This document shows, in pieces, positions 44,274-62,973 of a DNA stretch of 64,000 bases. Location of the stretch: positions 732,687 through 796,686 of the forward strand of contig CBDBPI010000001.1 of the NCBI GenBank assembly GCA_965208725.1. The letters are read 5' to 3'. The translations under genes were made by a program, and so were the position numbers. Below the pieces are notes generated by a model that was given only the letters and a program-made list of their open reading frames with translations, was not told the origin of the DNA and made no database searches. Source of the stretch: Dehalococcoidia bacterium (lineage in GTDB: Bacteria > Chloroflexota > Dehalococcoidia > Lucifugimonadales > GCA-2712585). Each line of letters starts with the position of its first letter. The stretch's first letter is position 1.

Positions 44274-44308
44274 TTGACTTGAAGGTACACCTGTTCTATC
44301 ATTAGAAC
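44274..44308 (+). promoter_or_regulatory. promoter plus overlapping palindrome upstream of phage-like module 1
   Basis: TTGACT (44274-44279), 17-nt spacer, TATCAT (44297-44302). Inverted repeat GTTCTA-tcat-TAGAAC (44293-44308) overlaps the -10. Confidence 0.45.
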
Positions 44309-44345
44309 ATCTCAGCTAGCAGGTGACAGTCGATGGAGGCAATTC

Positions 44346-44663
44346 TTGACTTTCGGATGGGAGATGGCCCTGGTTCTTCAGAGCTGCGTTACCGCCCTCG
44401 CCAGCGGGTTCAACGCCCTCCGGTTCCTCGCGTACCCGACCCACGGACGGCCACATCGCCGGTGGGCCTTGTACGCCCTTCTGACGGTCAGCCTCGCCTT
44501 CCTGGTTCAGAGCCTCTACCTCGGCCTCCTGCCCTGGGTGGCGGGACTTCAAGCGGAAGTCCTGGCCACGCCCAGAATCAGGTTTATGGTCGGCGCGCTG
44601 CCCATGGTCGCATCCGTCCTCGTGCTGAGTTTCATTCTGCGCCGATGGAAAAAAAGGAGATAG
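44346..44663 (+). CDS. small 3-TM membrane protein with basic C-terminus (holin-like topology)
   Basis: Three hydrophobic helices; ends RRWKKRR. First gene of a translationally coupled operon ending in TerL. The start may be the ATG at 44364. Confidence 0.5.
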   Translation: MTFGWEMALVLQSCVTALASGFNALRFLAYPTHGRPHRRWALYALLTVSLAFLVQSLYLGLLPWVAGLQAEVLATPRIRFMVGALPMVASVLVLSFILRRWKKRR

Positions 44664-44667
44664 TTCG

Positions 44668-44814
44668 ATGACCCTGGACCGGATAGTTGCGGAAGAAGAG
44701 TGGGAGTTGATGTCGCTGTGTCTTCTGCTCGGCATGCTCAGGTCCTCCCTGGCCATGCCGGAAGACGCCTTGACGGAACTTCTGGAAGTACTCGAAGGCG
44801 ACCTTGATGAGTAG
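44668..44814 (+). CDS. small hypothetical protein (48 aa, below the ORF-track cutoff)
   Basis: AGGAG 8 nt upstream of the ATG. The stop overlaps the next gene's start. Reads MTLDRIVAEEEWELMSLCLLLGML... Confidence 0.4.
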   Translation: MTLDRIVAEEEWELMSLCLLLGMLRSSLAMPEDALTELLEVLEGDLDE

Positions 44815-45127
44815 CAAGATCGCGGAAATAGTCCCCAATGATTTCTACGCCGACGTGCTTTCGGAGGCCGAACGCGTCCGCATGGAGGCGGCAAGAGAGA
44901 TGCAGGGCATAGACGAAGAGGTAGCAATTCTCCGAATCAAACTGCGAGACCAGATTATGCAGCATCCCGAAAAGGCAGAGCTGCTCTTCAAAGGGATGAA
45001 CATGCTAACCAAAGCCGTATCCACCCAATACAAGCTCTCCCCCAAGTCGCAGGACGACCTGAACGACAGCATCATCGGCGTCATCAACGGCATCGGACGG
45101 GAACTCTGGCCGGAGGGCGGGGAGTGA
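44804..45127 (+). CDS. hypothetical helical protein upstream of terminase (small-terminase role possible but unsupported)
   Basis: 107 aa. Coupled to neighbours by overlapping stop/start codons on both sides. Confidence 0.5.
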   Translation: MMSSKIAEIVPNDFYADVLSEAERVRMEAAREMQGIDEEVAILRIKLRDQIMQHPEKAELLFKGMNMLTKAVSTQYKLSPKSQDDLNDSIIGVINGIGRELWPEGGE

Positions 45128-45345
45128 GTCGCAAGAGCATCGGCAAAGCCCTGCGCAGGTTATCGGCAAGAATGCGCCGCCGTCCGTCCTCGGACCTTCG
45201 GCAGGTATCCCCGGAGGCGCTCCTCGACCTCCGCGTAAAACTTCTCGAAAAACAATTGGATGAAGTGAAAGGGCGCGTCAACGCCCTGATGCTTATTATT
45301 CTGGCCGCCGTCATTACCGACGTGGTAATGCGCGCGGTGACATAG
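45124..45345 (+). CDS. tail-anchored coiled-coil membrane protein (XhlA-like architecture)
   Basis: Basic N-terminus, coiled coil (LLDLRVKLLEKQLDEVKGRV), C-terminal TM LMLIILAAVITDVVM. GTGA overlap with the upstream gene. Confidence 0.45.
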   Translation: MSRKSIGKALRRLSARMRRRPSSDLRQVSPEALLDLRVKLLEKQLDEVKGRVNALMLIILAAVITDVVMRAVT

Positions 45346-45357: not shown

Positions 45358-46746
45358 ATGAGCGACCGATACCCTCTGCGAAAATATCAACTGGACATAG
45401 GCCGCGCCATCGGGGAAAGCGTGGCCCACCGTAAGGGCCTTACCCTCACCGTGGAGATCGCCCGCCAGGGTGGAAAGAACGAGCTTTCCGCCCAGCTGGC
45501 CGCCCTTTACCTCACCATGGGCCAGTATTACGGCGGCAACATGATCAAGGCCGCGCCCACCTTCCTGCCCCAGTGCCTCATCAGCATGAACCGCCTCAAG
45601 GATCGGCTGAACGACGCCGGCTACCGTGGCCACTGGCGCATGGATTCGGGAAACGCCGTGGTCCTCGGCAAGGGCAGGCAAATCTTCCTCAGCGCCGAGC
45701 CCGACGCCAACGTGGTAGGCAACACGGCCCACATCCTGCTGGAGATGGACGAGGCCCAGGACATCGAATCCGAAAAATACCACAAGGAGTTCCGTCCTAT
45801 GGGCGCCTCCACCAACGTCACCACCGTCCTCTACGGCACCCCCTGGGACGGACACTCCCTGCTGGAGGAAGTCGCTCAAGCCAACCTGGAATTGGAGCGA
45901 AAAGACGGCGTAAAGCGCCACTTCTCCGTGCCCTGGGATGAAGTGGCACAGCACAGCCCGTCCTACCGCCAATACGTGGAGGCTGAGCGGGAGCGCATGG
46001 GCGAAAACCACCCCCTCTTCCGCACCCAGTACCTGCTCCTGCCCATCTCCGGTCGCGGCGGCCTCTTCACCGCCGGCGACACCTCCCAACTTCAGGGCGC
46101 CCACCCCCGTCTCAGCAGCCCAACCCGGGGCGCCGTCTACGTGGCGGGCTTGGACGTGGGCGGCGGAGTCGATAGCCTGTCAATATCGGACCGCAGGCCC
46201 GACTCCACCGTGTTGACCATCGGCGAACTGAACTTCTCCACCACCGACGCCATCAATCGCGACCCTGCCGTCCGCGTGGTGGAGCACTACGAGTGGCGGG
46301 GAATGCCCCACCACTCCCTCTATCCCCGGCTGGTGGACCTGCTCAAGAACGTCTGGCGTTGCCGAAGGGTTGTCGTCGACGCCACCGGCATGGGCGAAGG
46401 GGTTGCCAGCGTCTTGTCGAAGGCCCTCGGCTCCAGCGCCGTAACATCGCTCCGATTCAGCGCCCAGAGCAAGTCGCGGCTGGGCTACGATCTGCTGTCG
46501 GCGGTCAACTCCGGCCGCCTGAAGATGTATGCCCGCGACGGTTCCGAGGAGTGGGCCGAATTCTGGCGTCAGGCTACCTCAGCCCGCGTCCAGTACCGGA
46601 TGAACAAGACCATGAACTTCTACGTGGAGGAATCCCAGGGCCACGACGATTACTTGAACAGCCTGGCCTTACTGGTCGAGGCGGGCAAGTACCTCCCCAG
46701 GGTAGCCAAAGGCCGCCCCCGCGAACGCCAGCTGGCAATGGTCTGA
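45358..46746 (+). CDS. phage terminase large subunit-like protein
   Basis: Walker A-like ARQGGKNE, Walker B ILLEMDEAQD. C-terminal RNase H-like acidic motifs (VAGLDVGGG, VVVDATGMG, GHDDYLNS). Strong SD AAGGAGG. Confidence 0.7.
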   Translation: MSDRYPLRKYQLDIGRAIGESVAHRKGLTLTVEIARQGGKNELSAQLAALYLTMGQYYGGNMIKAAPTFLPQCLISMNRLKDRLNDAGYRGHWRMDSGNAVVLGKGRQIFLSAEPDANVVGNTAHILLEMDEAQDIESEKYHKEFRPMGASTNVTTVLYGTPWDGHSLLEEVAQANLELERKDGVKRHFSVPWDEVAQHSPSYRQYVEAERERMGENHPLFRTQYLLLPISGRGGLFTAGDTSQLQGAHPRLSSPTRGAVYVAGLDVGGGVDSLSISDRRPDSTVLTIGELNFSTTDAINRDPAVRVVEHYEWRGMPHHSLYPRLVDLLKNVWRCRRVVVDATGMGEGVASVLSKALGSSAVTSLRFSAQSKSRLGYDLLSAVNSGRLKMYARDGSEEWAEFWRQATSARVQYRMNKTMNFYVEESQGHDDYLNSLALLVEAGKYLPRVAKGRPRERQLAMV

Positions 46747-46753: not shown

Positions 46754-47044
46754 CTAATCCCCCAACCGCGCCGCTAATTCCTCGTGGGAGATGAGGTTGC
46801 CCTCCCGCATATCTTTGATCCCTTCACGAATGCCGCCCATCATCTCCTCATCTTCCATAATCTCCATCGTTTCCACGATGGATTCATACAGATCCCATGG
46901 GATAACGACCAACACCGGCTTTCCCCTCTTGGTCAACGCAACGGCGCGCTTTTCCTCCGTAAGCTTTTCCGGCAGGCGGGCAAGCATTCCGCGCGCCGCG
47001 GTGATTGGAATGCCTTCCATTCCAATATTCTCATCGATAACCAT
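46754..47044 (-). CDS. Phd/YefM-like antitoxin
   Basis: ALTKRGKPVLVVIPWDLYESIVETMEI pattern. Located downstream of its toxin. Confidence 0.65.
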   Translation of the reverse strand: MVIDENIGMEGIPITAARGMLARLPEKLTEEKRAVALTKRGKPVLVVIPWDLYESIVETMEIMEDEEMMGGIREGIKDMREGNLISHEELAARLGD

Positions 47045-47054
47045 GTCTGTTCTC

Positions 47055-47381
47055 CTATGTCGGGGGGCCTAAATGCCCGAGCCTGATTAACCTTATTGTC
47101 ACGTAGTAAACGTCTTTTCTTGATCCACTGTGCCTCATTCCGACGTTTATCACGATAACTCTTTCAAGAGTATCGTCTACGTAGTATATAATGCGGTACC
47201 TTTGCCCAACAGCCCTAACTGTCCGGTAACCAACCAATTCATCCTGTAGTGGTTTCCCCTGTTTGTCCGGCTCTTGGGATAGTCTGCCGGCTCGCCTCAA
47301 GATGACGGTTTGTACCCGTCTATCAGGTATCGAATTGATTGCTCTTAGTGCTGCTGCGGTATATTGAATGTCATAGGCCAT
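47055..47381 (-). CDS. RelE/ParE-family toxin
   Basis: ...GYRTVRAVGQRYRIIYYVDDTLERVIVINVGMRHS...; low GC. Confidence 0.7.
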   Translation of the reverse strand: MAYDIQYTAAALRAINSIPDRRVQTVILRRAGRLSQEPDKQGKPLQDELVGYRTVRAVGQRYRIIYYVDDTLERVIVINVGMRHSGSRKDVYYVTIRLIRLGHLGPPT

Positions 47382-47386
47382 AATAC

Positions 47387-47959
47387 TTGCAGGCGAAACA
47401 AGTGCGCAATATAGTACATTCTATCGGACAAATGCAAGCGACGGCAATCCAAACCAAAACCCGCGCGCGAATCATCCTCGCGTGCCTCACTACCCTCTTC
47501 CTGCTCGCCTGCATGGGCCATCAGGAGGTGGCGCAGACAGAAACCGCTCCCCCATCAACCCCGATAATCGAAGCTGAAGCGACCATCGCCTCCTGCACCT
47601 TCTACCTGGAAGTCGCAGACACCTCTCAGGAACGGGCGCAGGGCCTCATGGGCAGGGAATCCCTCGGCCACGACCGAGGCATGATATTCATCTTCCAGAG
47701 CGAGCAGACCCTCAGCTTCTGGATGCGAAACACTCTCATCCCCCTGGACATACTCTTCATGGACAAAGACCTAACCGTCGTCAACGTACAGACCATGCGC
47801 CCTGAGCACGAAACTGACGGGGATTCCCTTCCCATCCACTCTTCCGCCGCACCCGCCCTCTACGCCATCGAAATCAACGAAGGAATGGCCGCCGAATGCG
47901 GCATCAAGCCGGGAGCGTCCGTCGTCCTGCGCGAAATCAGCCCCGAAGCTGCGCAGTAA
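47387..47959 (+). CDS. DUF192 domain lipoprotein
   Basis: LFLLAC lipobox; ERAQGLMGR..., GMIFIF, FWMRNTLIPLDILF. Start uncertain (TTG 47387 or ATG 47432). Confidence 0.75.
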   Translation: MQAKQVRNIVHSIGQMQATAIQTKTRARIILACLTTLFLLACMGHQEVAQTETAPPSTPIIEAEATIASCTFYLEVADTSQERAQGLMGRESLGHDRGMIFIFQSEQTLSFWMRNTLIPLDILFMDKDLTVVNVQTMRPEHETDGDSLPIHSSAAPALYAIEINEGMAAECGIKPGASVVLREISPEAAQ

Positions 47960-47962
47960 CCC

Positions 47963-48949
47963 CTATCCGTGCAGTTCGATAACGTCCCCGTCCGCGAGGA
48001 CGTAGTCGCGGCCCACCCGCTGTCCGTCGAACTTGGCCGAACCCCACAGAAGCGCGTACTTCAGCTTCTCCCGCCACTCCTTGTGAAGCCTCTGGGCCGC
48101 GTCCGAGGCGGTGCTCCCCCTCGCTATGACGATGGGCTTGTCAAAGTCCGGCTGTCCGCTGGGACTCTTGGTGTACACCCGCACCTTCTTCAGATGCTTG
48201 AACACCTCCCGACCCACCTCCTCCAGCCCCGTGCCGTCCAGACATGACAGCTTGATGATGGTGAACTTCTCTCCGTAAGCCCGCTCCAGCCTGCGAAACT
48301 TCTCGTCGGCGTCCTCTGCATCCGCCTTGTTGGCCAGGATGATCGACAGCTTCTGAATCCTCGCCCCCTCCGGGTCGATGGCCTCCCCCGCCTCCAGCAG
48401 CGAATACCCCCACTGGTGCAGCAATGCGTTTATCTCCTCCATCTCCACCATCGGGTCCCCTTCCAGGTCCACCGTCACCAGCAGCAGGTCCGTGTTGCGC
48501 AGCAGTCCGAACAGCCGCGTCTGCACGTCCAGCGCGTTCAGAGCCGGAGTGTCCACCAGCTGGAACATGATGTTTTCGAAAGGAAGCATCCCCACCATCG
48601 GGATCTGCGTGGTGAAGGGATAGTCGCCCACCTTGGCCGGTGCGCGGGTGAGGGCGTTCAGGATCTCCGACTTACCCGAGTTTGGCAGGCCGACTATCAG
48701 CACCTGCCCCGCACCCTCCTTGCGAATGCTGAAGGGCTGCGGCCCGCCGCTGGTGCTCTTGGGTTTCTCCAGCTCCTCCATGTGCCGCGACATCCGGGCG
48801 CGCAGGTCCGCCCGCAGATGGTCCGTCCCCTTGTGCTTCGGGATGACGGCCATCATCTCCTGAAGCGCCGCAACCTTCTCCGGCAGCGTCCTCGACTGAC
48901 GGTAACGCTGTTCCGCTTCCTTGTATTTGGGGGTTAGATTGGCTGGCAT
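47963..48949 (-). CDS. DRG-type (Obg superfamily) GTPase with C-terminal TGS domain
   Basis: N-terminal helical region with KHKGTDHLRADLRARM, G1 GLPNSGKSE, FTT, DTP. TGS: VYTKSPSGQPDFDKPIV...LLWGSAKFDGQRVGRDYVLADGDVIEL. Confidence 0.8.
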   Translation of the reverse strand: MPANLTPKYKEAEQRYRQSRTLPEKVAALQEMMAVIPKHKGTDHLRADLRARMSRHMEELEKPKSTSGGPQPFSIRKEGAGQVLIVGLPNSGKSEILNALTRAPAKVGDYPFTTQIPMVGMLPFENIMFQLVDTPALNALDVQTRLFGLLRNTDLLLVTVDLEGDPMVEMEEINALLHQWGYSLLEAGEAIDPEGARIQKLSIILANKADAEDADEKFRRLERAYGEKFTIIKLSCLDGTGLEEVGREVFKHLKKVRVYTKSPSGQPDFDKPIVIARGSTASDAAQRLHKEWREKLKYALLWGSAKFDGQRVGRDYVLADGDVIELHG

Positions 48950-48994
48950 CTTCCGATTATGGTTCTCCCACAGACCCCAAAGTCCCCGCCCCCG

Positions 48995-49033
48995 CCTTCC
49001 CCCTTGACGGGGGAAGGTTTGGATGGGGGTGAT
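48995..49033. repeat. REP-like hairpin, family E
   Basis: CCTTCCCCCttgacGGGGGAAGGtttggatgggggtga; 9-bp GC stem. Confidence 0.8.
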
Positions 49034-49157
49034 TCAGGTAGTATGGATGACGCATTTGGTAGTTATGCAATGTCTTCCCCGAAGGGTGGGGTTCCGATGG
49101 GTGTGATGCTTCTCTATCTCCATTCTGTTCAAATCGACCCGCAAAGCCCTCCGGCTG

Positions 49158-49937
49158 CTAGTGTCCCGTGTACTCGGGGTCCCGCTTCTCCACGAAGGCC
49201 CTCGCCGACTCCTCGAAGTCCGCCGTGTTGTGAAGCCTTAACGCCGCCTGGTAGTAGTCCGCCTCGGCGGCGGCACGCACCCACGGCCAGCGCGTCACCC
49301 TCACCCCGGCGCGGACCGCCAAGGGCGGCGCTTCAAGAATCTGCTCCGCCAGTTCCACGGCCCCCCGCAGATGCTCGCCCTTCGGTGTGACCCGATTTAT
49401 CAGCCCATGACCCATCAGCGTCTCGGCGGTCTGGGACTGCCCCGTCAGCAGCATCTCCGTGGTCATCTTGGAGGGCATGAAGTTCTGCACCTTGGCCCAC
49501 GCCGGCCCTCCGGGGAAGCCCCGCAGCGTCTCAGTGAGACCGAACTCAGCCCCCTTCTCGGCGACGATTAGGTCGCACTCGGCGGCGATGACCAGCCCGT
49601 AACCCAGACAGTATCCGTGGACGGCGGCGATGACAGGCTTCCAGTTGATGCATCGACCCAGAAACCCCTCCGGGTTCATCCCCATACCCCAGTCGGCGTC
49701 CCGTTGGCGTGAGTTGGGGTTGTGAAACCGCTCCTTTACGTCGGCGCCGGAGCAGAAGGCCCGACCCGCCCCATGCATCACCGCCACCCAGGCCTCGTCG
49801 TCAACGTCAAAGCTGTGCAGGGCCTCCGCCAGGTCTGTCTCCAGGTCCTTGTTGACGGCGTTGAGCACCCGCGGCCGATTTAGGGTCACGTAGCCGATGC
49901 GGCCTTCTCTTCGATAAGTGACGGCTTTCGAGTTCAT
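49158..49937 (-). CDS. enoyl-CoA hydratase/isomerase (crotonase) family protein
   Basis: ITLNRPRVLNAV, AFCSGADV, AAVHGYCLGYG. Confidence 0.88.
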   Translation of the reverse strand: MNSKAVTYRREGRIGYVTLNRPRVLNAVNKDLETDLAEALHSFDVDDEAWVAVMHGAGRAFCSGADVKERFHNPNSRQRDADWGMGMNPEGFLGRCINWKPVIAAVHGYCLGYGLVIAAECDLIVAEKGAEFGLTETLRGFPGGPAWAKVQNFMPSKMTTEMLLTGQSQTAETLMGHGLINRVTPKGEHLRGAVELAEQILEAPPLAVRAGVRVTRWPWVRAAAEADYYQAALRLHNTADFEESARAFVEKRDPEYTGH

Positions 49938-50010
49938 AACTGGACAGCCTCCAAAGCCTATTATGCCCCAGCCGCACCTCTCTTGCCAGTCGACCCCTCT
50001 TAATCCACCC

Positions 50011-50214
50011 GCTCATCCTGAGCTTATCGAAGGACGGCGTGGATGGGATGATCGCACTCCCTCCACTCCTCCCCCGCCTCCGCTCCACTTTCCCCACCCC
50101 CGCGAAAGCGGGGGCCCACTCGTCAACAGAAATCATCAAACCCCACCACGCTGCCTTTTCTTGTTTCTGCGAAGGCGGGAACTCCCCCACTCATCCTGAG
50201 CCTGCCGAAGGACG
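50011..50214. repeat. mosaic REP-like array 2 (families C, B, B', C)
   Basis: gctcatcctgagcttatcgaaggacgg (50011-50037); ccccacccccgcGAAAgcgggggcccactc (50092-50122); ttctgcGAAGgcgggaa (50164-50182); ctcatcctgagcctgccgaaggacg (50189-50214). Confidence 0.8.
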
Positions 50215-50279
50215 TAGGGACGGTTCGCGAACCGCCCGACCCAACTCCCCGCCAATTCTCAAAAGTGCCAAAATGCCCC

Positions 50280-50359: not shown

Positions 50360-50704
50360 ATGCTCCCCAGTCGAACCAGCAAGAAATACATCGGCGCAAA
50401 CATCGATGGCCAGGAATACAGGGACGAAGGATGCGAAATCTCCCCGTCCTGTCTGCGATGTCCTCTGCCCCGCTGCAAGTACGACGATCCCCAATACGCC
50501 CAGGCCCAGCGTCGCCGTCAGAGGGACAACCTGATCGTCAGCGCTCACGTACGCGAAGGTCTCTCCGTGGCCGAGGTGGCCCGTCGGTTCGGACTCACCC
50601 ACAAGACCATACTTCGAATTTTAAGGAGGAACGGATATGGAAGAAATAAATCTGCCTCAGCTCGTCGCAAGAAGGGACGCCCGTCGGCTGCAAGGCTACG
50701 CTGA
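50360..50704 (+). CDS. Cys4 plus helix-turn-helix small protein (overlaps the portal start)
   Basis: CEISPSCLRCPLPRC, then HTH LSVAEVARRFGLTHKTILRILRR. The 3' end overlaps the portal gene by 68 nt. Confidence 0.5.
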   Translation: MLPSRTSKKYIGANIDGQEYRDEGCEISPSCLRCPLPRCKYDDPQYAQAQRRRQRDNLIVSAHVREGLSVAEVARRFGLTHKTILRILRRNGYGRNKSASARRKKGRPSAARLR

Positions 50705-51965
50705 AAACATCAGCTTCTTCGCCGGACGTCAGTGGCAGGGCCGCCAGCGTCGCGGCGAACGTCGGCTCACCTTCAACTACGTGCGCGCCCTGCTCGAAAA
50801 GGTCACGTCCTACATGGCCTCCGGCAGCATCCTCGCAATGGAGCCAATAGAGCCTTCAGAAGAAGGCATGGCCCGCGCTCGCAGCGCTGAAATCGCCATG
50901 CGCCGCGTCTACCAGGACAACCGGCTGGAAGAGCTGGACCTCGCCACCGAGCTCGACGCCGCCGTCCTCGGCGACGGCTGCTTCAAGGTCATCTGGGACC
51001 CGGAAGAACATCGCGTCCGCGTAACCGCCCCCGACGTTCAGGGCATCTTCGCCTGGTGGATCGGCGACGATCCATCCAGGGTCTGGCGCGTCGCCAGCCG
51101 ATACCGCATCTCCGCCGAAGACGCCGACCACCTTTACAACGTCAAGACCGGCGACCAGGACGGCATGGCTACCGTCGTCGAAGGCTGGACAAAGTCCCTG
51201 TTCCAGCTGTGGGTCGGCGATAACCTCGTCGACGAACGTCCCAACCCCTACGGCTTCATCCCCTTCGTCATCTTCCCCAACCTGCGGGATCCAAAACGCT
51301 TCTGGGGCGTCTCCGACATCCCCATCCTCATGGAACCAGCCCGCGAGCTCAACCGCGCCCTCTCCCAGCTTTCCACCATCCTGGAACTCTCCGGCAACCC
51401 CATCGCCGTGCTGGAGGGTGTGGAGGAAGCCCGCGACATCGCCGTGGAGCCGGGGGCAGTCTGGGAGCTTCCCGACCAGGCCCGCGCCTACCTGCTGGAT
51501 CTGCTCCAGGGCGGCGGCGCCAAGCTCCACGCCGACTACATCAAGCTGGTCTACGACGCCCTCCACGACCTGTCCGAAGCGCCTCGTATCAGCTTCGGAC
51601 ACAACCCACAGCGTCTCTCCGGCGTCGCCCTGGAGATGGAGATGCACCCCCTGCTGCAGCGCGTTGAGCGCAAGCGGCTTATCCGATCCTGGGTCTACCG
51701 TCGACGGGCGGAGATGGCCCTCCGGATGCTGGAACGCTTTGCCGGACAGGACTTCGGCGATCTCTGGATACGCGTTGACTGGGGGCCTCTGCTGCCCCAG
51801 GACCGCACCCGCCTTGTCCAGCAGGAACGCAGCCTCGTGGAGGCAGGCATCCACAGTCGCCGACGCGCCATGGAGCGCCTCGGCGTCACCGACCCCGAAT
51901 CCGAGCAGCAGACCATCCGACGCGAGTCGGAGAAGTCCGCCTTAGAAAACATCAACAACAATTAG
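50637..51965 (+). CDS. phage portal-like protein
   Basis: 442 aa. Its position before an acidic scaffold-like ORF and its size suggest a portal. Strong SD AAGGAGG 8 nt upstream. Assignment is by context and general resemblance only. Confidence 0.55.
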   Translation: MEEINLPQLVARRDARRLQGYAENISFFAGRQWQGRQRRGERRLTFNYVRALLEKVTSYMASGSILAMEPIEPSEEGMARARSAEIAMRRVYQDNRLEELDLATELDAAVLGDGCFKVIWDPEEHRVRVTAPDVQGIFAWWIGDDPSRVWRVASRYRISAEDADHLYNVKTGDQDGMATVVEGWTKSLFQLWVGDNLVDERPNPYGFIPFVIFPNLRDPKRFWGVSDIPILMEPARELNRALSQLSTILELSGNPIAVLEGVEEARDIAVEPGAVWELPDQARAYLLDLLQGGGAKLHADYIKLVYDALHDLSEAPRISFGHNPQRLSGVALEMEMHPLLQRVERKRLIRSWVYRRRAEMALRMLERFAGQDFGDLWIRVDWGPLLPQDRTRLVQQERSLVEAGIHSRRRAMERLGVTDPESEQQTIRRESEKSALENINNN

Positions 51966-51975: not shown

Positions 51976-52542
51976 ATGGAAAATCAACCAAACGAGACCA
52001 ATTCCGAGGCCATAGAAATGTTAGACGACTCCACCGACACGCCTGAAATCAAGCACGAAAGCTCCGAAAATTCGGATTCCTCTGCACCACACAGCGAAAC
52101 GAGTCCCCCGGCAACAAGTCAGGAAGAAACGTCGGAAGAGAGCGAGAAGAATGAGGACGCAAACGTGGAGGAACCCTCCCCGCTCGAAGGCCGAATGGCA
52201 GAGCTGGAGCAACGGCTCGAACAGTCGGAGACCCAACGTCGGGAAGGTGAAGAAAAACTCTCCGCCACGCAGAAATCCCTGGCGGAAGCGGTTTCCCGCT
52301 ACCGGGCCATGCTGCTGAAGTCCATGCCGGAGGCGCCTGAGTCCATGGTCGTCGGAGAAACCGTGGACGAAGTGGACAGCTCTTTCGCCGACGCCAAGGC
52401 CCTGGTCCAACAGGTTCGACGAGAAATGGAGGAAAGACTGGCCAGGGAACGTCTCCCCGCCGGTTCCCCCACCCGCGGCCACGCCAACTTCGCAACCCTC
52501 ACCCCCATGGAAAAGATCCGCTCCGCCCTCTCCAACCCCTAA
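51976..52542 (+). CDS. phage scaffold-like acidic coiled-coil protein
   Basis: 188 aa. Very acidic N-terminus (SEESEKNEDANVEE) and a coiled-coil centre. Immediately follows the portal-like gene. Confidence 0.5.
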   Translation: MENQPNETNSEAIEMLDDSTDTPEIKHESSENSDSSAPHSETSPPATSQEETSEESEKNEDANVEEPSPLEGRMAELEQRLEQSETQRREGEEKLSATQKSLAEAVSRYRAMLLKSMPEAPESMVVGETVDEVDSSFADAKALVQQVRREMEERLARERLPAGSPTRGHANFATLTPMEKIRSALSNP

Positions 52543-52567
52543 AACGCCCACAACCACATAACCATCC

Positions 52568-54519: not shown

Positions 54520-54591
54520 CCCGCCAATAATGTAGTCCACTACTTCCCTTGATTTGAGAATAGATAATCTCCTCAGAGTGAGGGCCGTAAA

Positions 54592-54966: not shown

Positions 54967-54976
54967 AGTCTATTTC

Positions 54977-56134: not shown

Positions 56135-56242
56135 CCTGTCTGCTGCTTGCAAATGACCCCTCCCCTTTGGCGTCAACCCCCTTTTACCAGAGCGCAACGA
56201 AAAGCGCAACGAAAGCCCCCAACCCCCACCAACCTCGCCTTC

Positions 56243-56480
56243 CGTAGCGGCGGGTTTAAAACCCGCCCTCTCCCGTCTTCCCCCTCTCCCGTCCTGGGAG
56301 AGGGTTGGGGTGAGGGTCACTCCCCCTCCCATCCCCCACATGTCACACTAAACGCAGCGAAGAACCTTGCTGCCATTTACCAATCCCCACCCCTCGTTTT
56401 CCCGCGAAGGCGGGAATCCATATTCCCTCTTCCCTCTTGAGCCTTCCCCATCGACGGGGGAAGGTATGGATGGGGGTGAC
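56243..56480. repeat. mosaic REP-like array 4 (families A, D, F, B', E) in a divergent intergenic region
   Basis: cgtagcggcgggtttaaaacccgccc; cccctctcccgtcctgggagagggttggggtgagggt; catgtcacactaaacgcagcgaagaacc; ttcccgcGAAGgcgggaa; ccttccccatcgacgggggaaggtatggatgggggtga. Confidence 0.85.
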
Positions 56481-56573
56481 TCCCTCCCTCTCACCGAGAC
56501 AAGAACCCCTCACCCACCCAAAATGTTAATATGTACCCGAATCGTATCCACTAACCAGCCACCGGAGGTTTCC

Positions 56574-57695
56574 ATGAACAGCAGCGACGTTGTAATCGTA
56601 GGTGGAGGCGCCGTCGGCTGCGCTACCGCCTATTTCCTGTCCCAAGCGGGCGCAAATGTCACGGTCATCGAAAAGAACCGCATCGCCTTCGGCGCCTCCG
56701 GTTTCGCAATGGGGTTGTTGAGCCCCCTCTACGGCATGGGCATCCCCGGCCCGCTGGAAGGACTGTCCCTCAACGGCTTCCTCATGCACCGCGATCTCGC
56801 CGCCGAACTCCCCGACGCCACCGGCGTCGACTACCACGCCCACCCCCACGACTCCATCTACCTTTCCCTCTCCGACGAGGATGAAGAAGGGTTGAAGGGC
56901 ATTGCGTCCTACTCCGGCAACGTCGATGGGGTCTCCTACCAGTGGCTGGAGAGACAACAACTCCGGAGCATCGAGCCGCGATTGACCCCCGCCGCCGAGC
57001 GCGGAATGCTCGTCCAGGGCACCTGGGTGCTGGAGGCCGACAAGTACACGGAAGCCCTCGCCGAAGGCGCAAAACTTCACGGCGCCACGTTCCTTGACCG
57101 CGCCGTCACCGGCCTCGCCCGCCGCTCCACCGGCGCGGTTGTCCAGACCGATCAGGGCGACATAGAGGCCGACGCCGTTATCCTCGCCATGGGCCCCTGG
57201 ACCGGCGACGCCGAGAAGTGGCTAGGCGTACCCATACCCGTCGGCCCCCTAAAAGGCCAGATTGTCCGAATGAACATCGGCGGGCCGCCCGTTACCTGCT
57301 CCGTTCACTACGCCAGCAACTACGCCGGGCAAAAAGCCGACGGCCTCACCTGGATCGGCACCACCGAGGAGCGCGTTGGCTTCGACAACGAACCTACTAT
57401 GGAAGCACGTGAGCGCATCATCCGCGAAGTCGGAGAATTTTTCCCGCCCGCGCTGACGGGAAAGGTTGTCCATCAAACGGCCTGCCTGCGTCCCGTGGCC
57501 CCCGACGGCCTCCCCGTCATCGGCCCCGTCCCCGGCTGGGAGGGTGTCTACCTCTCCACCGGCGCCGGACGCAAGGGCATCATCCTCAGCCCGTCCATGG
57601 GTAAGTTGACCGCGGAAATGGCCTTGGGCAGCGGCGACGAAATGGCAATCGCCGCCTTCTCCCCCGTCCGCTTCAGCTCCATAGCCCCGTGCTGA
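56574..57695 (+). CDS. FAD-dependent oxidoreductase (DAO/glycine oxidase-like)
   Basis: DVVIVGGGAVGCATAYFL dinucleotide-binding motif. Start at MNSSDVV with a GGAGG SD. Confidence 0.85.
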   Translation: MNSSDVVIVGGGAVGCATAYFLSQAGANVTVIEKNRIAFGASGFAMGLLSPLYGMGIPGPLEGLSLNGFLMHRDLAAELPDATGVDYHAHPHDSIYLSLSDEDEEGLKGIASYSGNVDGVSYQWLERQQLRSIEPRLTPAAERGMLVQGTWVLEADKYTEALAEGAKLHGATFLDRAVTGLARRSTGAVVQTDQGDIEADAVILAMGPWTGDAEKWLGVPIPVGPLKGQIVRMNIGGPPVTCSVHYASNYAGQKADGLTWIGTTEERVGFDNEPTMEARERIIREVGEFFPPALTGKVVHQTACLRPVAPDGLPVIGPVPGWEGVYLSTGAGRKGIILSPSMGKLTAEMALGSGDEMAIAAFSPVRFSSIAPC

Positions 57696-58596
57696 AGTAA
57701 CGCTCGCCGATGTCGTTGAAAATCGTCACCACCTTCCCCTCTCCCACCCTCTCTGCGACGATAAACGCCCCCAGCACGTAGGCCCCCGAGCTCTGCCCGG
57801 CGAACAACCCCTGCGACGCCAGCTCCTGTGACACGGCCCGCGCCTCGTCGATGTCTATGGACAGCATCTCGTCCACCACGCTCTCGTCCAGCGTCTGCGG
57901 CGTAATGTGCCCCGGCCCCAGCGGCTTCAGCCCCTCCACGCCGGGCCATTCCGGCGGATTGACGCCGATGACCTGGATATCCGGGTTATGCTCTTTCAGC
58001 CGACGCCCAACCCCGCTGATGGTCCCGCCCGTCCCCACGCCCGCCACGAAGTGGGTGATGTCCGGCGCCTGACGCAGAATCTCCTCGCCGGTTGTGTCGT
58101 AGTGGGCCTGCGGATTGAACTCGTTGGAGTACTGGTCGCACCAGAAATACCGCTCCGGCTCCCCCTCGTACCGGCGCTTCACCTCCCGCAGCGTCTCGTC
58201 GTAGCCCAGCATCGGGTCGGTAAAGATAATCTCCGCGCCGTGGGCCAGCAGCCGCTTCTTCCGCTCCTGGCTCGCGTTCTCCGGCATCACCAGCGCCACC
58301 CGGTAGCCCAGCACCGCGCCAATCATGGCGTACGCGATGCCCGCATTCCCCGATGTGGCATCCAGAATGATCTTATCCTTCGTCAACTCCCCCGAAAGAA
58401 TCGCCTCTCCCAACATCCGCAACACGGGACGGTCCTTGATGGAGCCGCCGGGATTCAGATGCTCATACTTGGCGAAGACGGGCGCGCCGCCCCGGCTGTT
58501 CGGGATTCGCGCCAGCGGCGTATTCCCGATGGCCTTCAGCGGCGGATACCCGTCCAGAAACTCCAGAAACTCCTCAGATAGGGACACCCAGCACAA
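57673..58596 (-). CDS. cysteine synthase (CysK/CysM family, PLP-dependent)
   Basis: IGNTPL..., NPGGSIKDRP (PLP lysine), TSGNAGIA. Confidence 0.88.
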   Translation of the reverse strand: MCWVSLSEEFLEFLDGYPPLKAIGNTPLARIPNSRGGAPVFAKYEHLNPGGSIKDRPVLRMLGEAILSGELTKDKIILDATSGNAGIAYAMIGAVLGYRVALVMPENASQERKKRLLAHGAEIIFTDPMLGYDETLREVKRRYEGEPERYFWCDQYSNEFNPQAHYDTTGEEILRQAPDITHFVAGVGTGGTISGVGRRLKEHNPDIQVIGVNPPEWPGVEGLKPLGPGHITPQTLDESVVDEMLSIDIDEARAVSQELASQGLFAGQSSGAYVLGAFIVAERVGEGKVVTIFNDIGERYFSTGLWS

Positions 58597-58743
58597 CCTC
58601 GTCCAGTGATTTGGGGAAGAAAACCGCTTTCCTTCTAGGACTCATGCGCCCCCTTCCACCAATCGAGTATATCTATTGCAGGTTTGGGCGTAAAGCTTGA
58701 GGAGTTTAGGAGGAGTTAATTCCCAAAAGGACCATTTTGCCTA

Positions 58744-59948: not shown

Positions 59949-60572
59949 ATGACCCTTACCGAAATGCGAAACCGCCTGCGGATAGACCTTCACGACGAAG
60001 ACTCCGCAAACTACCTCTGGACCGACGACCAACTCAACCGCCACCTCGGCCGCGCCGTGCGCGAACTCAGCGCCGTCCAGCCCCAGCCTGACGTGGCAAC
60101 CGTAAAGACCGGCTCCGACGGACGCTCCGTGACCCTGACCTCCCTCTCTGACCTCGTCCGCATCGAAGCCGTTGAATTCCCCCTCAACGAAATCCCGCCC
60201 TCTTACATAGACTACAGCCTCCGCGGTGCCGCCCTGACTCTGCTAACGTACCAACCGCCCAAGCCCAACGAGTCCGTGAGGGTCCACTACGGACGCCTTC
60301 ACACTCTGGACGACGACACCTCCACCATCCCACCCCACCTTGAAGAACTCGTCATCACCGGCGCCGCGGGTTACGCCGCCATGGACTGGTCCGTCCACGC
60401 CATCAACAGCATCAACCTTGGCGGCCCAAACACCTGGCGACACTTCCTGGTCTGGGGACAGGAGAAGCTGGCCCACTTCCGACAGGGCTTGGCCGCCCTG
60501 AGCCGCCGGGCCGGACTGCGAGTGCGCCGTCTCTACCGCCCTGTACACCAGCCCACTGCTGGAGGACTATAG
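59949..60572 (+). CDS. phage head-tail adaptor/head completion-like protein
   Basis: MTLTEMRNRLRIDLHDEDSANYLWTDDQLNRHL... is a typical adaptor N-terminus. Position after the capsid gene. Its stop overlaps the next gene's GTG. Confidence 0.45.
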   Translation: MTLTEMRNRLRIDLHDEDSANYLWTDDQLNRHLGRAVRELSAVQPQPDVATVKTGSDGRSVTLTSLSDLVRIEAVEFPLNEIPPSYIDYSLRGAALTLLTYQPPKPNESVRVHYGRLHTLDDDTSTIPPHLEELVITGAAGYAAMDWSVHAINSINLGGPNTWRHFLVWGQEKLAHFRQGLAALSRRAGLRVRRLYRPVHQPTAGGL

Positions 60573-62569
60573 TGCGCTCCCTTTCTCAAACGCTATTGGA
60601 TGCACAGCGCTACTCTCGCCGTCAGCCCCACCTGGGCGTGACCGTGGATCGGCGGCTTCCCCACGTGTTCCATCCCGTCTTCTCCCGGCTTCAGAATCTG
60701 GACGAGACCCCCTCCCGCCACGACCTCCACCTCACCTCAACCAGGACTCTCATCCGGGCCCGCGTCTCCCGCTCCAACTCCAGGCTCTACGTCCAGCGCG
60801 TCGCCGGAGCCGGATCAAACAGCAGCTTCACCCAGTGGACGTACCTGAACCGCGCCTATCCCGACGCCGGAGTCGCCCTATGCGGCAGCGGCTCCTACGT
60901 CCTCATGGTCTATGTCCACTACAGCAACCGACGCGAGATCCGATACCGCGAAAGTACCGACGACGGCGTCACCTGGAGCAGTGACAGTCGCCTCGTCTAT
61001 CCCTCCGTCGGCGGCGTATCCCACCTCACCGCGGCCATGAGCCCTGCCGGAAAAGTGGGACTCTTCTTCACCGGAACCAACAACAACCTCTACGCCATGA
61101 GGCGGCTCGACGGAAGCTGGACCGCCCCCGCATCGTGGCCTCAGTCCTCCTACGTCAGGCAGATTTCCGGCATCGCCTCCGCATACGGCGACGACTGGAA
61201 CGTGGTCGTCTGCGGCACAACCTCCACCGGCTCCTCCCGCGTGTGGACCATGATTTACGGCGACGGTACGGAGCAGGCCCGCGGCCAGTGGTCCAGCATC
61301 ACCAGCCTCACCCGCGCCGATGGCGGCTCCCGGGTTTCCTTCTCCCATCCCTATCTGGCAAATGCCGACACCAACCGTCTCTTCTTCAAAGAGTCCTACG
61401 ACGGCTCCGATTCCTACGGTCGCGCCTTCTGGACCTTCACCCCTCAGAGCGCCTCCTTCCTGACTGCCCGGTGGCGCGAGCCCATCCCCTTCGACGCCGA
61501 CCCCTACGCCGGTGTGGCCGTTGCTGGAAACTCCACCACCCTCTGGCTTGGAACCTCAACCCAGGTCTGGCGAGCCGCCGCCGGTCCTCAGCTGGACCTG
61601 ACCGACGACCTTCTGGAGGCGCATCTGACGGAAGGCGCTGCTGGTGGTCAAGCCACCCTGCTCCTTCGCAACGACAATGGCCGCTACAACGGTGCCGGCG
61701 TCGAAAGCGCATCGCCCCTGGTGCCGGGCGCGCGGGTCCGCTTCAACCCAGGCTATGTCACCCCTAAAGGTGTCGAGCGCTCCCCCGGCCCCGCCTACTG
61801 GATTGCAGGACTGGAGCGCCGTTCAGGCCACGGAAAGGCCCGCCTCGCCCTCTATCTGGAGGACGGCTGGTCCCTGCTGGAACGATGGCGCGCACGCTAT
61901 CAGCACAACTGGATCAAGGGCTTCACCTCCGTCGAGGACATCATGGAGTTCATCCTTGCCAGGGCCGGTTTGAGCCTGGAAGTCCTCAGCGCCAGCCAGG
62001 TTTTCAGGAGGCAGCGCCCTGCCTTCACCATCCACCCGAACGCCACCGCAGCCGACGCCGTCAAGCGGCTCATGTCCACCGTGCCGGACGTTCTCTACTT
62101 TCGGCAGGGCAGCCCCGCCGTGAAGCTGCTCGATCCCTCCGATGCCGCCGATTACTCCTACGGCGCGGACCATCCCATCATCAACGGCCGATATCTATAC
62201 CGGCCGTCCCGCTACAACCGCATCCAGACCTTCGGCCTAAACAGGCTCCAGGAGTCCCTCGACTGGGACTCCGTTGCGGCAATGTCGGACAGGCTCCTGC
62301 AGGTCTACGACATTAACCAGGAGACCTCCGACTCCGCAAAGAAGAGGAGCGACAGCCTCCTCGCCAAGGAACGACTCGCCACCCGGGGAGGACTTCTGGA
62401 AGCCCCTGTCAACTGTGGCTTGGAACTCTACGACGTAATCGGCATCACGGACCCCGCCGCCGGTCTCAACGGCGCCAGGCGGCGAGTCACCGGCATAGAC
62501 CTCAAGTACCGACGAGGCCCGAACGCCCCACCCCTCTACCGCCAGACCCTGACCCTCTCGGGAGTATGA
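60572..62569 (+). CDS. phage tail hub-like protein: BNR/sialidase-like N-terminal half fused to a gpD/gp27-like C-terminal half
   Basis: Asp-box STDDGVTWSS and propeller-like repeats in aa 1-330. The C-terminal half (ATLLLRNDNGRYN...VRFNPGY...YWIAGLERR...ARLALYLEDGWSLL) resembles late-control-D/hub proteins. Confidence 0.45.
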   Translation: MRSLSQTLLDAQRYSRRQPHLGVTVDRRLPHVFHPVFSRLQNLDETPSRHDLHLTSTRTLIRARVSRSNSRLYVQRVAGAGSNSSFTQWTYLNRAYPDAGVALCGSGSYVLMVYVHYSNRREIRYRESTDDGVTWSSDSRLVYPSVGGVSHLTAAMSPAGKVGLFFTGTNNNLYAMRRLDGSWTAPASWPQSSYVRQISGIASAYGDDWNVVVCGTTSTGSSRVWTMIYGDGTEQARGQWSSITSLTRADGGSRVSFSHPYLANADTNRLFFKESYDGSDSYGRAFWTFTPQSASFLTARWREPIPFDADPYAGVAVAGNSTTLWLGTSTQVWRAAAGPQLDLTDDLLEAHLTEGAAGGQATLLLRNDNGRYNGAGVESASPLVPGARVRFNPGYVTPKGVERSPGPAYWIAGLERRSGHGKARLALYLEDGWSLLERWRARYQHNWIKGFTSVEDIMEFILARAGLSLEVLSASQVFRRQRPAFTIHPNATAADAVKRLMSTVPDVLYFRQGSPAVKLLDPSDAADYSYGADHPIINGRYLYRPSRYNRIQTFGLNRLQESLDWDSVAAMSDRLLQVYDINQETSDSAKKRSDSLLAKERLATRGGLLEAPVNCGLELYDVIGITDPAAGLNGARRRVTGIDLKYRRGPNAPPLYRQTLTLSGV

Positions 62570-62584
62570 CATGACAATCAAAAA

Positions 62585-62758
62585 CCATCCCCCACCACCG
62601 AACCCCCTCCCCTTCTTCCCCCTCTCCCGTCCTGGGAGAGGGTTAGGCCTGTCCTGAGCTTGTCGAAGGGGTGAGGGTCCCTCTTACCTCTTCCCCCTTG
62701 ACGGAGGAAGATTGAGATGGGGGTGATTCCCAATCAACCAAAACCCAACACAGGTGAA
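62585..62758. repeat. mosaic REP-like array 6 (families H, D, C, E) bracketed by a 16-bp direct duplication
   Basis: Flanked by ACATGACAATCAAAAA at 62569-62584 and 62759-62774. Confidence 0.85.
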
Positions 62759-62760
62759 AC

Positions 62761-62973
62761 ATGACAATCAAAAAAGGCATCATCAAGGCTTTCAGCTCCT
62801 CAACCTACAAGGCCACCGTCCAGATGGAAGGCAGCCTCTCCGTCTGGGTAAGCTCCGTCCCCGTCGCCCGCAACATATCCTCCTCCCAGGTCCAAACCGG
62901 CAGACGCTGCGCCATCCTCTTCTTCAGCGAAGAGAACAAAAACGACGCCGTAGTCTTCGCCGTCTACACCTAA
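62761..62973 (+). CDS. small OB-fold-like protein (gpV/gp5 spike N-domain-like)
   Basis: KGIIKAFSSSTYKATVQMEGS...VPVARNI...GRRCAILFFSEENKNDAVVFAVY follows the G.V..v....a.V.......l..vpv......G..v.vlf......avv.avy pattern. Confidence 0.4.
   Translation: MTIKKGIIKAFSSSTYKATVQMEGSLSVWVSSVPVARNISSSQVQTGRRCAILFFSEENKNDAVVFAVYT

Follow-up and report, generated by a model that had tools for sequence, protein, structure and literature searches.

What is a set of phage genes doing in a bacterial chromosome when it lies there in three pieces, with metabolic genes in between? This question is raised by a stretch of 64 kb (the window, hereafter) from the genome of a Dehalococcoidia bacterium of the phylum Chloroflexota (assembly GCA_965208725.1, contig CBDBPI010000001.1, positions 732,687 to 796,686), where the region at 44.3-63.0 kb encodes a large terminase (TerL), a portal, a major capsid protein, a head-to-tail adaptor and a tail-tip hub. 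A previous examination of these letters without database searches (the sequence-only reading) had favoured a locus retained over the long term under host control, similar to a gene transfer agent (GTA), over a fresh or decaying prophage. The class-wide vertical inheritance of the genes and a promoter signature found in all modules now argue for the same choice, and it seems fairly probable to us that we are dealing with phage genes domesticated by the host and now its own, a GTA-like particle system and not a prophage.

A phage gene set in three modules

The particle genes occupy three same-strand modules with spacings of 3.6 kb between modules 1 and 2 and 6.2 kb between modules 2 and 3. Module 1 (44346-46746) encodes a membrane protein of 105 amino acids (aa), an acidic open reading frame (ORF) of 48 aa, a helical protein of 107 aa, a tail-anchored protein of 73 aa and TerL; module 2 (50360-52542) a 114-aa protein with four cysteines and a helix-turn-helix (Cys4-HTH), the portal and an acidic protein of 188 aa; and module 3 (58806-62973) the capsid, the adaptor, a 665-aa protein and a 70-aa protein. 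Genes were identified through Pfam and PHROGs profile searches of the ORFs, combined with AlphaFold2 and Foldseek in the case of the 665-aa protein. In this way, TerL, portal, capsid and adaptor were recognised as phage structural proteins by their profiles and the hub by its fold, whereas the genes lying between the modules were assigned by Pfam to metabolic and other housekeeping families, so that the division of packaging, head and tail-tip genes first seen by eye is confirmed. The same holds for the host-like, GC-rich codon usage: G+C content at third codon positions is 0.63-0.88 in the particle genes versus 0.72-0.86 in host genes, and relative synonymous codon usage correlates with that of the host at r 0.83-0.89.

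Gene order, inheritance and selection

A scan with one genome per species revealed the portal gene in at least 565 species-level genomes, and the genome-locus counts given throughout refer to the best 80 of these at least 565 (handles such as L005 denote single loci). With the exception of two (one Chloroflexia and one Deltaproteobacteria), the 80 loci are titled Dehalococcoidia, Dehalococcoidales, Dehalococcoides or metagenome-assembled genomes of Chloroflexota/Chloroflexi, and many of them are on Mb-scale or closed chromosomes. Searches by tblastn with every protein of the window revealed one order and strand across all 80: membrane protein, small proteins, TerL, Cys4-HTH protein, portal, scaffold-like protein, capsid, adaptor, hub and tip protein. 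The sizes of the gaps are lineage-specific. The cluster is nearly contiguous in L037, it keeps 6 kb between TerL and portal in L074 and 7 kb between portal and scaffold gene in L036, and the capsid unit lies more than 10 kb away from the portal in L012, L019, L020 and L022 and alone among host genes in L003, while many Dehalococcoidales carry 1-3 kb of extra genes between capsid and adaptor.

The exact split of the window, with the same GTPase, enoyl-CoA hydratase (ECH), LLM, aminotransferase, DAO and PALP genes, was found in L005-L008, whose portals are 91-94% identical to the one of the window and whose assemblies are three complete chromosomes (OX638324.1, OZ250180.1 and OY762063.1) and a 1.5-Mb contig (CBDBNU010000003.1). 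L166, a 1.6-Mb contig whose portal is 73% identical, likewise shows the division between TerL and portal with the GTPase and the ECH gene inside. Close relatives carry, then, the divided set with the same intervening genes and not a contiguous complete prophage. The interleaving could also have been created by a chimeric contig, either through assembly or binning, and the exact capsid and portal proteins of the window had no identical entry in the public protein collection. An artefact of this kind is excluded because the split recurs in independent assemblies, four of them long ones sharing the same host genes plus the 1.6-Mb contig, and the synonymous divergence (dS) of phage-derived and host genes matches as well; we give it a practically negligible probability.

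The surroundings of the modules are core genes, with hisS, relA and rpsT directly upstream in L165 and genes for RNase H and a CT398-like protein in L074 and L082, and flanking ORFs are common to different species down to ~70% portal identity. The more similar two genomes are in their syntenic flanking host ORFs, the more similar they are in the portal (Pearson r=0.87 over 48 genome pairs), the portal being more conserved than those ORFs in the genome pairs displayed. Ratios of non-synonymous to synonymous divergence (dN/dS), computed against L005-L008 and L001, reach 0.02-0.29 for the structural genes (up to 0.47 for the scaffold) versus 0.05-0.28 for the interleaved host genes, the small proteins as a group showing values of 0.12-0.28. 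Moreover, the dS of phage-derived genes (0.24-1.05) overlaps that of the interleaved host genes (0.31-0.85). The particle genes are under purifying, not relaxed, selection, as strong as the one acting on the adjacent metabolic genes, and the whole set, about a dozen genes typical of a small phage with a head and a short tail, is vertically inherited throughout the Dehalococcoidia.

Altogether, synteny, the identity correlation, dN/dS, dS and codon usage exclude both the drift of a dead prophage and a recent acquisition. A defective remnant, that is, an old prophage that lost most of its genes while the rest drifted and was broken by rearrangements, would account for a fragmented cluster where most phage functions are lacking, for the frameshifted or stop-containing TerL of some relatives and for the insertion sequences near the modules of L165 and L166. 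It does not account for selection and synonymous divergence equal to those of host genes, for a portal more conserved than its neighbours in the displayed pairs, for the persistence of the set in at least 565 species with conserved promoters, or for the intactness of 11 out of 11 profiled or ordered genes in the window, and we regard it as very improbable.

A promoter shared by the modules

Alignment of the upstream regions of the modules with their orthologues revealed a common layout (P1-P3 in Table 1), where a GTG(A/C)C box is followed after 9-10 nt by a -35 element and, ~9 nt downstream, by a palindrome resembling GAAC-N4-GTTC whose right half runs into the -10 element. An independent scan for sigma-70 promoters picks the same three sites, with P1 as the best of the region (10/12). 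P1 is conserved in L005-L008 and L166, P3 in L001, L005-L007 and L166, and the sites homologous to P2 in relatives show a perfect GAAC-N4-GTTC. The composite pattern has exactly three matches on the + strand of the window, which are P1, P2 and P3, and when a strict tripartite pattern was searched on both strands of 2.4 Mb of related DNA, 28 of the 36 matches were located in front of module starts. Similarly, 21 out of 35 perfect GAACNNNNGTTC sites in 1.9 Mb correspond to module promoters (those of the small-gene/TerL, HTH-portal or scaffold-capsid unit), with the box overlapping the -10 element. The particle genes are thus predicted to be transcribed as three units that start from copies of one tripartite promoter.

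In the clade of the window the third unit begins with the capsid gene behind its promoter, the scaffold-like gene remaining in the portal unit. Internal promoters are present even in compact clusters such as L021, and therefore the ancestral cluster would already have been made of three units. Since no unit depends on the promoter of another, intervening host genes need not disturb their co-ordination; lineage-specific gaps fall mostly at unit borders. A further full tripartite promoter (GTGCCA...TTGACC...GAACTGATATTCTAT) was observed in L047 (~5115-5155, - strand), on the opposite strand and ~2.6 kb upstream of the cluster, where it could drive an additional, divergent member of the regulon.

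Regarding the factor that binds the operator, GAAC-N4-GTTC is reportedly the experimentally determined LexA site of Dehalococcoides ethenogenes, as Fernandez de Henestrosa and co-workers are said to have described in J Bacteriol in 2002, and a box placed over the -10 element would fit a repression of the SOS type. No recA, lexA or uvrA gene was found in the 2.4 Mb of related loci. LexA is put forward as the operator-binding repressor only as a hypothesis, and the Cys4-HTH protein encoded in module 2 is an equally plausible candidate to bind either the palindrome or the GTGAC box. The same palindromic sequence is the LexA box of Bacillus subtilis (PMC4234289).

The particle genes

Table 1. Positions of the particle genes, their putative promoters and the blocks between modules, with the matches or properties behind each assignment.
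Feature	Position	Strand	Matches and properties
Promoter P1	44260..44302	+	GTGAC box 44260-44264; -35 TTGACT 44274-44279; palindrome-like operator GTACACCTGTTC 44285-44296; -10 TATCAT 44297-44302
105-aa membrane protein	44346..44663	+	Three hydrophobic segments, the N-terminal one weaker than the other two, and basic C-terminus (hydropathy); holin-like by features only
48-aa acidic ORF	44668..44814	+	Read from the sequence; stop overlaps start of next gene
107-aa helical protein	44804..45127	+	Separated from TerL by a single small ORF; position alone makes it a small-terminase candidate
73-aa protein	45124..45345	+	Basic N-terminus, single C-terminal transmembrane helix (hydropathy)
TerL, large terminase (ATPase and RNaseH-like nuclease)	45358..46746	+	Terminase_6C 2e-6; phrog_38/5909/9/5713
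Intervening block 1	46754..50231	.	Phd/ParE pair, DUF192, MMR_HSR1+TGS GTPase, ECH, then hairpin arrays resembling repetitive extragenic palindromes (REP-like) (Pfam)
Promoter P2	50265..50309	+	GTGCC box 50265-50269; -35 TTGCAA 50280-50285; operator-like AAACGCCCGTTC 50292-50303; -10 TATAGT 50304-50309
114-aa Cys4 and helix-turn-helix protein	50360..50704	+	Cys4 motif CEISPSCLRCPLPRC; 3' end overlaps portal start by 68 nt
Portal protein	50637..51965	+	SPP1_portal 6.5e-16; phrog_64 2.5e-26
188-aa acidic coiled-coil protein	51976..52542	+	Scaffold candidate by position and composition; net charge -22
Intervening block 2	52543..58727	.	REP-like arrays, orphan ORF 52839-53426 (-), LLM oxidoreductase, DUF1428, aminotransferase, DAO flavoenzyme/oxidoreductase, PALP enzyme (Pfam)
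Promoter P3	58729..58773	+	GGACC box 58729-58733; -35 TTTACA 58744-58749; operator-like GTATCCATGTTC 58758-58769; -10 TAGTAT 58768-58773
Major capsid protein, HK97 fold, 296 aa	58806..59696	+	phrog_212 1.7e-71; SU10_MCP 9e-8; GP7 5e-7
Head-to-tail adaptor, SU10 type	59949..60572	+	SU10_adaptor 4.4e-9
665-aa tail-tip protein, N-terminal BNR/sialidase-like beta-propeller and C-terminal baseplate-hub fold (gp27/Mu gp44/VgrG)	60572..62569	+	
70-aa protein	62761..62973	+	After hub; tip or spike candidate by position

In TerL, the Walker A (RQGGKN), Walker B (LLEMDE) and nuclease aspartates (266, 341 and 430-431) are all at least 95% conserved among 54 sequences, and the gene has a dN/dS of 0.15-0.23. 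It is frameshifted, stop-interrupted or truncated in a few relatives (L037 8167-9560; L039, L114 and L162; L166 6406-7266), where the other genes of the cluster look intact; this may reflect either errors of long-read sequencing or a real loss of packaging in some lineages. The portal (dN/dS 0.07-0.09) has 3850 relatives in the protein collection, of which the best 120 are 60-92% identical, and the capsid (dN/dS 0.02-0.16) has 5856, the best 120 of them with 294-298 aa and 71-92% identity. Many of these best 120 capsid relatives are encoded in contigs 1-3 Mb long; where a source is named, which is seldom, it is SAR202, Dehalococcoidia or Chloroflexi, and the portal gives a similar picture. The adaptor gene is kept downstream of the capsid gene in relatives and shows a dN/dS of 0.19-0.29, a range that also includes the hub (0.19).

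No sequence family was found for the 665-aa protein by Pfam or PHROGs, and its assignment comes from the AlphaFold2 model, built on an alignment of 32 homologues and with high scores of confidence (predicted local distance difference test, pLDDT, 91; predicted template modelling score, pTM, 0.87). The C-terminal ~345 aa match the hubs of Mu gp44, T4 gp27, VgrG, extracellular contractile injection systems and pyocins (Foldseek against PDB, E 1e-15 to 1e-10); over PDB and BFVD together the hub matches span E 1e-17 to 1e-10, the BFVD entries being named 'tail protein' or 'phage protein D'. The N-terminal half is a beta-propeller with an Asp-box in the model, for which a PDB profile search gave weak, sub-threshold BNR/Asp-box matches (best E 0.0016, with no stretch passing alone). 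The 70-aa protein follows the hub in 17 genome loci and in many IMG/VR contigs at 40-91% identity, with a dN/dS of 0.05. Its single-sequence model is poor (pLDDT 51), so that the six predicted strands carry little weight, and its profile gave just a weak match against PDB (4jiw_D, E 0.05).

Among the remaining proteins, the 105-aa, 73-aa and 188-aa ones matched no Pfam or PHROG family, and the profile search gave no family for the 48-aa ORF either. The labels that the sequence-only reading had given to some of these ORFs (holin-like, XhlA-like, scaffold and, for the 70-aa protein, OB-fold spike) find no support in homology and should be taken as positional guesses, based on hydropathy, charge, position and conservation; as genes, all four are conserved. 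The membrane protein is always first in the cluster, its orthologues being 74-86% identical in L005-L008 and 30-51% identical in genomes farther away (dN/dS 0.16-0.28). The 107-aa protein occurs in 48 of the 80 genome loci, in every case ahead of TerL and either next to it or one small ORF away (dN/dS 0.20-0.24), and a profile of 27 orthologues of this small terminase-like (TerS-like) protein found no match in PDB. Orthologues of the 73-aa protein were detected in 28 of the 80 loci (dN/dS 0.12-0.19). The scaffold-like protein is conserved at 30-50% identity in its C-terminal ~60% (dN/dS 0.18-0.47), and its gene is just upstream of the capsid gene in most relatives.

Two genes of the cluster had been overlooked when the structural genes were listed from the sequence alone. 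One is the 48-aa ORF, at whose position a 52-aa gene is called in L165 and L166. The other one encodes the Cys4-HTH protein, found directly upstream of the portal in 77 of the 80 loci. This protein matches HTH_23 just under the Pfam cut-off (2.7e-5) and phrog_836, a 'late transcriptional activator' (9.5e-5), a weak resemblance that goes through the HTH, and it is a candidate for a regulator or a DNA-recognition factor.

In the Dehalococcoidales loci L074 (12627-15340), L045, L051, L055, L060, L066, L071, L076, L079, L083 and L084, extra conserved genes appear between capsid and adaptor, which encode a protein of 170-200 aa matching phrog_23653 and another one of 209-552 aa with GSG-rich repeats. 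A conserved gene of ~105 aa lies between adaptor and hub in the same loci, and no extra genes of this kind occur in the clade of the window. The particle may thus be more elaborate in other orders.

Missing functions and viral relatives

Neither an integrase nor a replication gene was detected by Pfam in the window, where the scans covered every long ORF at 40-64 kb and, at 1-40 kb, 20 of the largest; the ±10 kb contexts of L001, L003, L165 and L166 likewise showed no phage maintenance genes. The window has no att-like copy of its tRNA-Leu, in agreement with what had been noticed by eye. The ORFs of 44-64 kb gave no match to sheath, tube or amidase families, the search for an endolysin gene was equally negative, and no ORF for a tail tube or a tape measure is present in or near the modules. 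An intact temperate prophage is not compatible with these absences, nor with modules split by host genes that diverge together with them.

The capsids of the closest deposited phages are at most 42% identical. IMG/VR lists as viral 393 contigs that carry the portal and 161 that carry the hub, the best 80 of each being fragments of up to 27 kb. In two instances, L128 (1796-8162) and L149 (2135-6670) with L212, the hub and tip genes are followed by ~6 kb with ArdC-N-like, tyrosine recombinase, Phage_rep_O-like and PolB-thumb genes, and then by a TerS-like gene, TerL, portal, scaffold and capsid. The first gene of a 17.3-kb IMG/VR contig is one that normally follows the adaptor and the last one normally precedes it, an order to be expected from a circle of ~18 kb in which the adaptor alone is lacking; contig 3300001335_000363 has no terminal overlap to prove circularity. 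The ~18-kb elements (3300001335_000363 and 3300035698_019770) share with the window the TerS-like gene, TerL, portal, scaffold, capsid, hub and tip in the same order and at 33-61% identity, but they differ in the tyrosine recombinase, RepO-like, ArdC-N-like and PolB-thumb genes placed between the tip gene and the TerL unit, in the lack of a Cys4-HTH gene by tblastn on either contig, and in a TerL ORF that, in L128, runs into the portal start. The nearest viral relatives of the cluster, free or integrative, are probably these elements. The portals of the integrase-linked contigs form a small clade with two other IMG/VR contigs, and these integrase-bearing contigs may be living viral cousins of the domesticated set.

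Could the locus of the window itself still excise, replicate and spread, be it as a small temperate phage or as a satellite that forms its own capsids and takes its tails from a helper phage? The gene order of L128 and L149 with L212, with its recombinase and Phage_rep_O-like gene, and the 393 portal contigs regarded as viral would be expected in that case. Linkage to an integrase or RepO gene, however, was seen in only 3-4 of the 166 loci examined, the circular form has no terminal overlap behind it, and the scans described above detected no such genes in the window, where the separating host genes co-diverge with the particle genes and the chromosomal position is conserved between species. 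Moreover, capsid-forming satellites lack tail-tip genes and carry an integrase. We consider an active virus or satellite improbable, albeit less so than a decayed remnant.

Comparison with other phage-derived particles

RcGTA, the GTA of the alphaproteobacterium Rhodobacter capsulatus, is encoded by chromosomal head, packaging and tail genes that are vertically inherited under purifying selection, with no replication or integration genes, and located at more than one locus, linked by regulation rather than by adjacency. The locus described here is similarly fixed in the chromosome, vertical across the clade, selected and devoid of replication and integration genes, with units that would be linked by their promoters. 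On the other hand, its capsid and adaptor match SU10-type and phrog_212 families, which points to an independent origin; it has no tail tube, tape measure, terminator or megatron-like gene, the tail being reduced to adaptor, hub and tip protein; its main cluster is cut by host genes, while the head-tail cluster of RcGTA is contiguous; and its predicted signal is a Cheo-box-like palindrome together with a Cys4-HTH protein encoded in the cluster. Different capsid and adaptor families, a split cluster and the lack of tube and tape measure place it outside the RcGTA family (Rhodogtaviriformidae), a separation drawn from profile families.

The nearest viral families by profile, for capsid and adaptor and weakly for the portal, are those of SU10 (Kuravirus) and of the phrog_212 group (Xanthomonas phage Xp15 and Pseudomonas phage Ab18). 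These phages, in contrast, have genomes of 43-58 kb with full tails and replication genes. The short tail of SU10 has a nozzle, whereas the hub found here shows the gp27/Mu gp44 fold. Capsid-forming phage-inducible chromosomal islands (cf-PICIs) are mobile islands with integrase, regulators and replication genes, which encode no tail-tip proteins and use helper tails. They resemble the locus in having a small set of packaging and capsid genes with no tail tube; the locus differs in the hub and tip protein it encodes, in its species-conserved position and in the absence of integrase and replication genes, and it does not qualify as one of these islands or satellites. An encapsulin is also at odds with the presence of a portal and a TerL that are conserved and co-inherited with the capsid gene.

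A different use is illustrated by PBSX of Bacillus, one of the defective prophages called phibacins, an SOS-induced, contiguous element of ~28 kb that packages host DNA and has a contractile tail, its own repressor (of the Xre type in such elements) and an amidase. Like PBSX, the present locus lies in the chromosome, persists throughout a group of hosts and cannot propagate, the palindrome has the sequence of the B. subtilis LexA box, and a small tail-anchored protein beside a holin-like one recalls XhlA/XhlB, in features only. The genes of the window, in contrast, are interleaved with those of the host and include no sheath, tube or endolysin, so a PBSX-like defective phage in the strict sense does not fit the absence of sheath, tube and amidase families from the ORFs of 44-64 kb. 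In a broader sense, the particle could be a bacteriocin-like killer or have some other non-transfer use: it would be made under stress, bind related cells through the propeller-hub and harm or decoy them, any packaged DNA being incidental. Such a particle would leave the same genomic signature as a GTA (host-inherited, selected genes without replication functions), and an operator with the LexA-box sequence of Gram-positive bacteria, the SOS induction of PBSX and a tail reduced to a tip complex with an enzyme-like propeller would all suit it. A purely protein-based killer, however, has no need of the ATPase and nuclease motifs that TerL keeps under purifying selection, and there is no sheath or tube here to puncture a cell. 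Sequence alone cannot separate delivery by a GTA from an action like that of PBSX, and we see the killer particle as a rather unlikely alternative, yet the strongest of those considered.

Intervening genes, repeats and flanking regions

Within the first intervening block, the GTPase and ECH genes hold their position in L005-L008 and L166, while the toxin-antitoxin pair and DUF192 vary. The Phd/ParE-type pair, just after TerL (46754-47381, - strand), is a case in point: among L005-L008, the antitoxin was found in three and the toxin in only one. Genes for AbiV and NYN proteins occur at the TerL junction of L082, and three MNT/HepT pairs near the capsid unit of L001, so module junctions seem to collect defence and addiction genes. 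In the second block, the order of the LLM, aminotransferase, DAO and PALP genes is conserved in L001 and L005-L008. The 195-aa orphan ORF of this block belongs to no family and lacks orthologues in the closest relatives. The 70-nt spacer upstream of it contains a GTTCTAGG motif with no recognisable -35 element, and this GTTCTAG site was discarded as a fourth promoter, given the missing -35 and the lack of orthologues of the ORF in relatives.

Several families of G+C-rich hairpin repeats pack the spacers at 48977-50231, 52555-52800, 56240-56491, 59678-59925, 62583-62740 and 62955-63510, with one copy at 40005-40058. They include CCCCGCGAANGCGGGGG (6 sites, all on the + strand and beyond 50 kb), GGCGGGTTTSAAACCCGCC (5 sites) and CTCTCCCGTCCTGGGAGAGGG, and they have the look of REP-type elements. 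The CCCCGCGAANGCGGGGG hairpin was considered as a cluster-specific signal at module borders and rejected: it is absent from 84 of 84 related loci and also present between host genes, and therefore it is a genome-specific REP-like repeat. Such repeats also explain spurious ORFs and over-long gene starts in the initial gene list. The ORFs at 49807-50190, 50191-50478 and 52539-52808, formerly counted as genes, are reading frames over hairpin arrays, and the aminotransferase and DAO genes are real but had over-extended 5' ends, their orthologues measuring 391 and 373 aa.

Beyond the particle region, 20 of the largest ORFs at 1-40 kb were scanned with Pfam, and those that gave a match are core genes (such as RNase J, FtsK, UvrB, RuvA, RuvB, YebC and CofD). 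Next to uvrB, two proteins of 911 aa (15245-17980, - strand) and 997 aa (18082-21075, - strand) had no Pfam match at E<=1e-5. Directly upstream of module 1, on the opposite strand, two adjacent large proteins (40051-42183 and 42313-44115, both -) contain long Pro/Thr-rich repeats with a 12-nt period. One of them has a trypsin-like peptidase domain and the other one (600 aa) shows an N-terminal hydrophobic segment and no family; the peptidase neighbour is kept in L005, with no relative in L006-L008 by tblastn. Up to ~44 kb the GC skew is close to zero or positive; from there to the end of the window it is strongly and constantly negative (-0.1 to -0.24), regardless of gene orientation. This shift, located where module 1 begins, could correspond to a replication-related skew switch or to a compositional domain.

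How the system could work and what it would mean

The locus shows the genomic marks of a GTA, namely chromosomal genes of phage origin, no module for replication, integration or lysogeny, and vertical inheritance under purifying selection, from which we infer the formation of particles, the packaging of DNA and its transfer. A common signal would switch on the three units, either through the release of a repressor bound to the palindrome or through the action of the cluster's own HTH protein. Procapsids would form on the portal with the acidic protein as scaffold, and TerL, perhaps with the 107-aa protein as small subunit, would fill them with DNA. This cargo should be host DNA, because the genes are scattered over at least 18.7 kb among host DNA and nothing replicates them separately. 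Adaptor, trimeric hub and tip protein would close the portal as a minimal tail, the beta-propeller of the hub binding or cleaving a glycan of the cell surface, and the membrane proteins would open the cell to release the particles. Dehalococcoides is described as lacking a murein wall, and by analogy the absence of an endolysin gene would fit a host of that kind. Lineage-specific insertions and rearrangements, mostly at unit borders, would have separated the units.

Several observations weigh against the domesticated, GTA-like nature of the set. There is no tail tube, stopper or fibre gene, and we know of no precedent for a hub docked straight onto an adaptor. TerL is broken in some relatives (L037, L039, L114, L162 and L166), and the few IMG/VR contigs in which these structural genes are linked with an integrase and a RepO-like one (L128, L149 with L212) suggest that part of the family may still be mobile. 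As for the operator, the left half of the palindrome is degenerate in the clade of the window (GTAC, AAAC and GTAT), with 1-2 mismatches at the three sites; the bare GAAC-N4-GTTC is not enriched in the window (15 matches versus 26.6 expected, allowing one mismatch); and the uvrB promoters of the window and of L047 carry no box. The link to LexA is therefore weak in the window. Taking these points into account, a domesticated particle system of the host remains the reading that we favour. The more specific proposal of a Dehalococcoidia-wide GTA of independent origin, a tube-less particle made of capsid, adaptor and hub, governed by a three-unit regulon with an operator of the LexA-box type, which packages and delivers host DNA, is put forward tentatively, as a possibility to which we grant somewhat less than an even chance.

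No description of this cluster was found in a limited check of the literature on GTAs, viriforms, capsids and LexA in SAR202, Dehalococcoidia, Dehalococcoides and Chloroflexota. To our knowledge, only a handful of independently domesticated phage particle systems have been recognised, almost all of them in Proteobacteria and spirochaetes, plus one archaeon. A class-wide system in Chloroflexota would add a new origin to this list and, if true, a new minimal architecture, with a hub docked on the adaptor and no tail tube. It would also offer a clear example of how such clusters become split, since a promoter shared by every unit lets host genes intervene while co-ordination is kept. If the IMG/VR contigs with portal and hub are host genes, virus-host links of Chloroflexota and counts of viral diversity would be inflated. 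The Dehalococcoidia, which include the abundant SAR202 group of the deep ocean and the organohalide-respiring Dehalococcoidales, are abundant as well in aquifers and sediments and comprise bacteria used in the clean-up of chlorinated solvents, and gene exchange among their small genomes now becomes testable. If the proposal holds, bacteria of the dark ocean and the subsurface would exchange genes by a route that has so far escaped notice.

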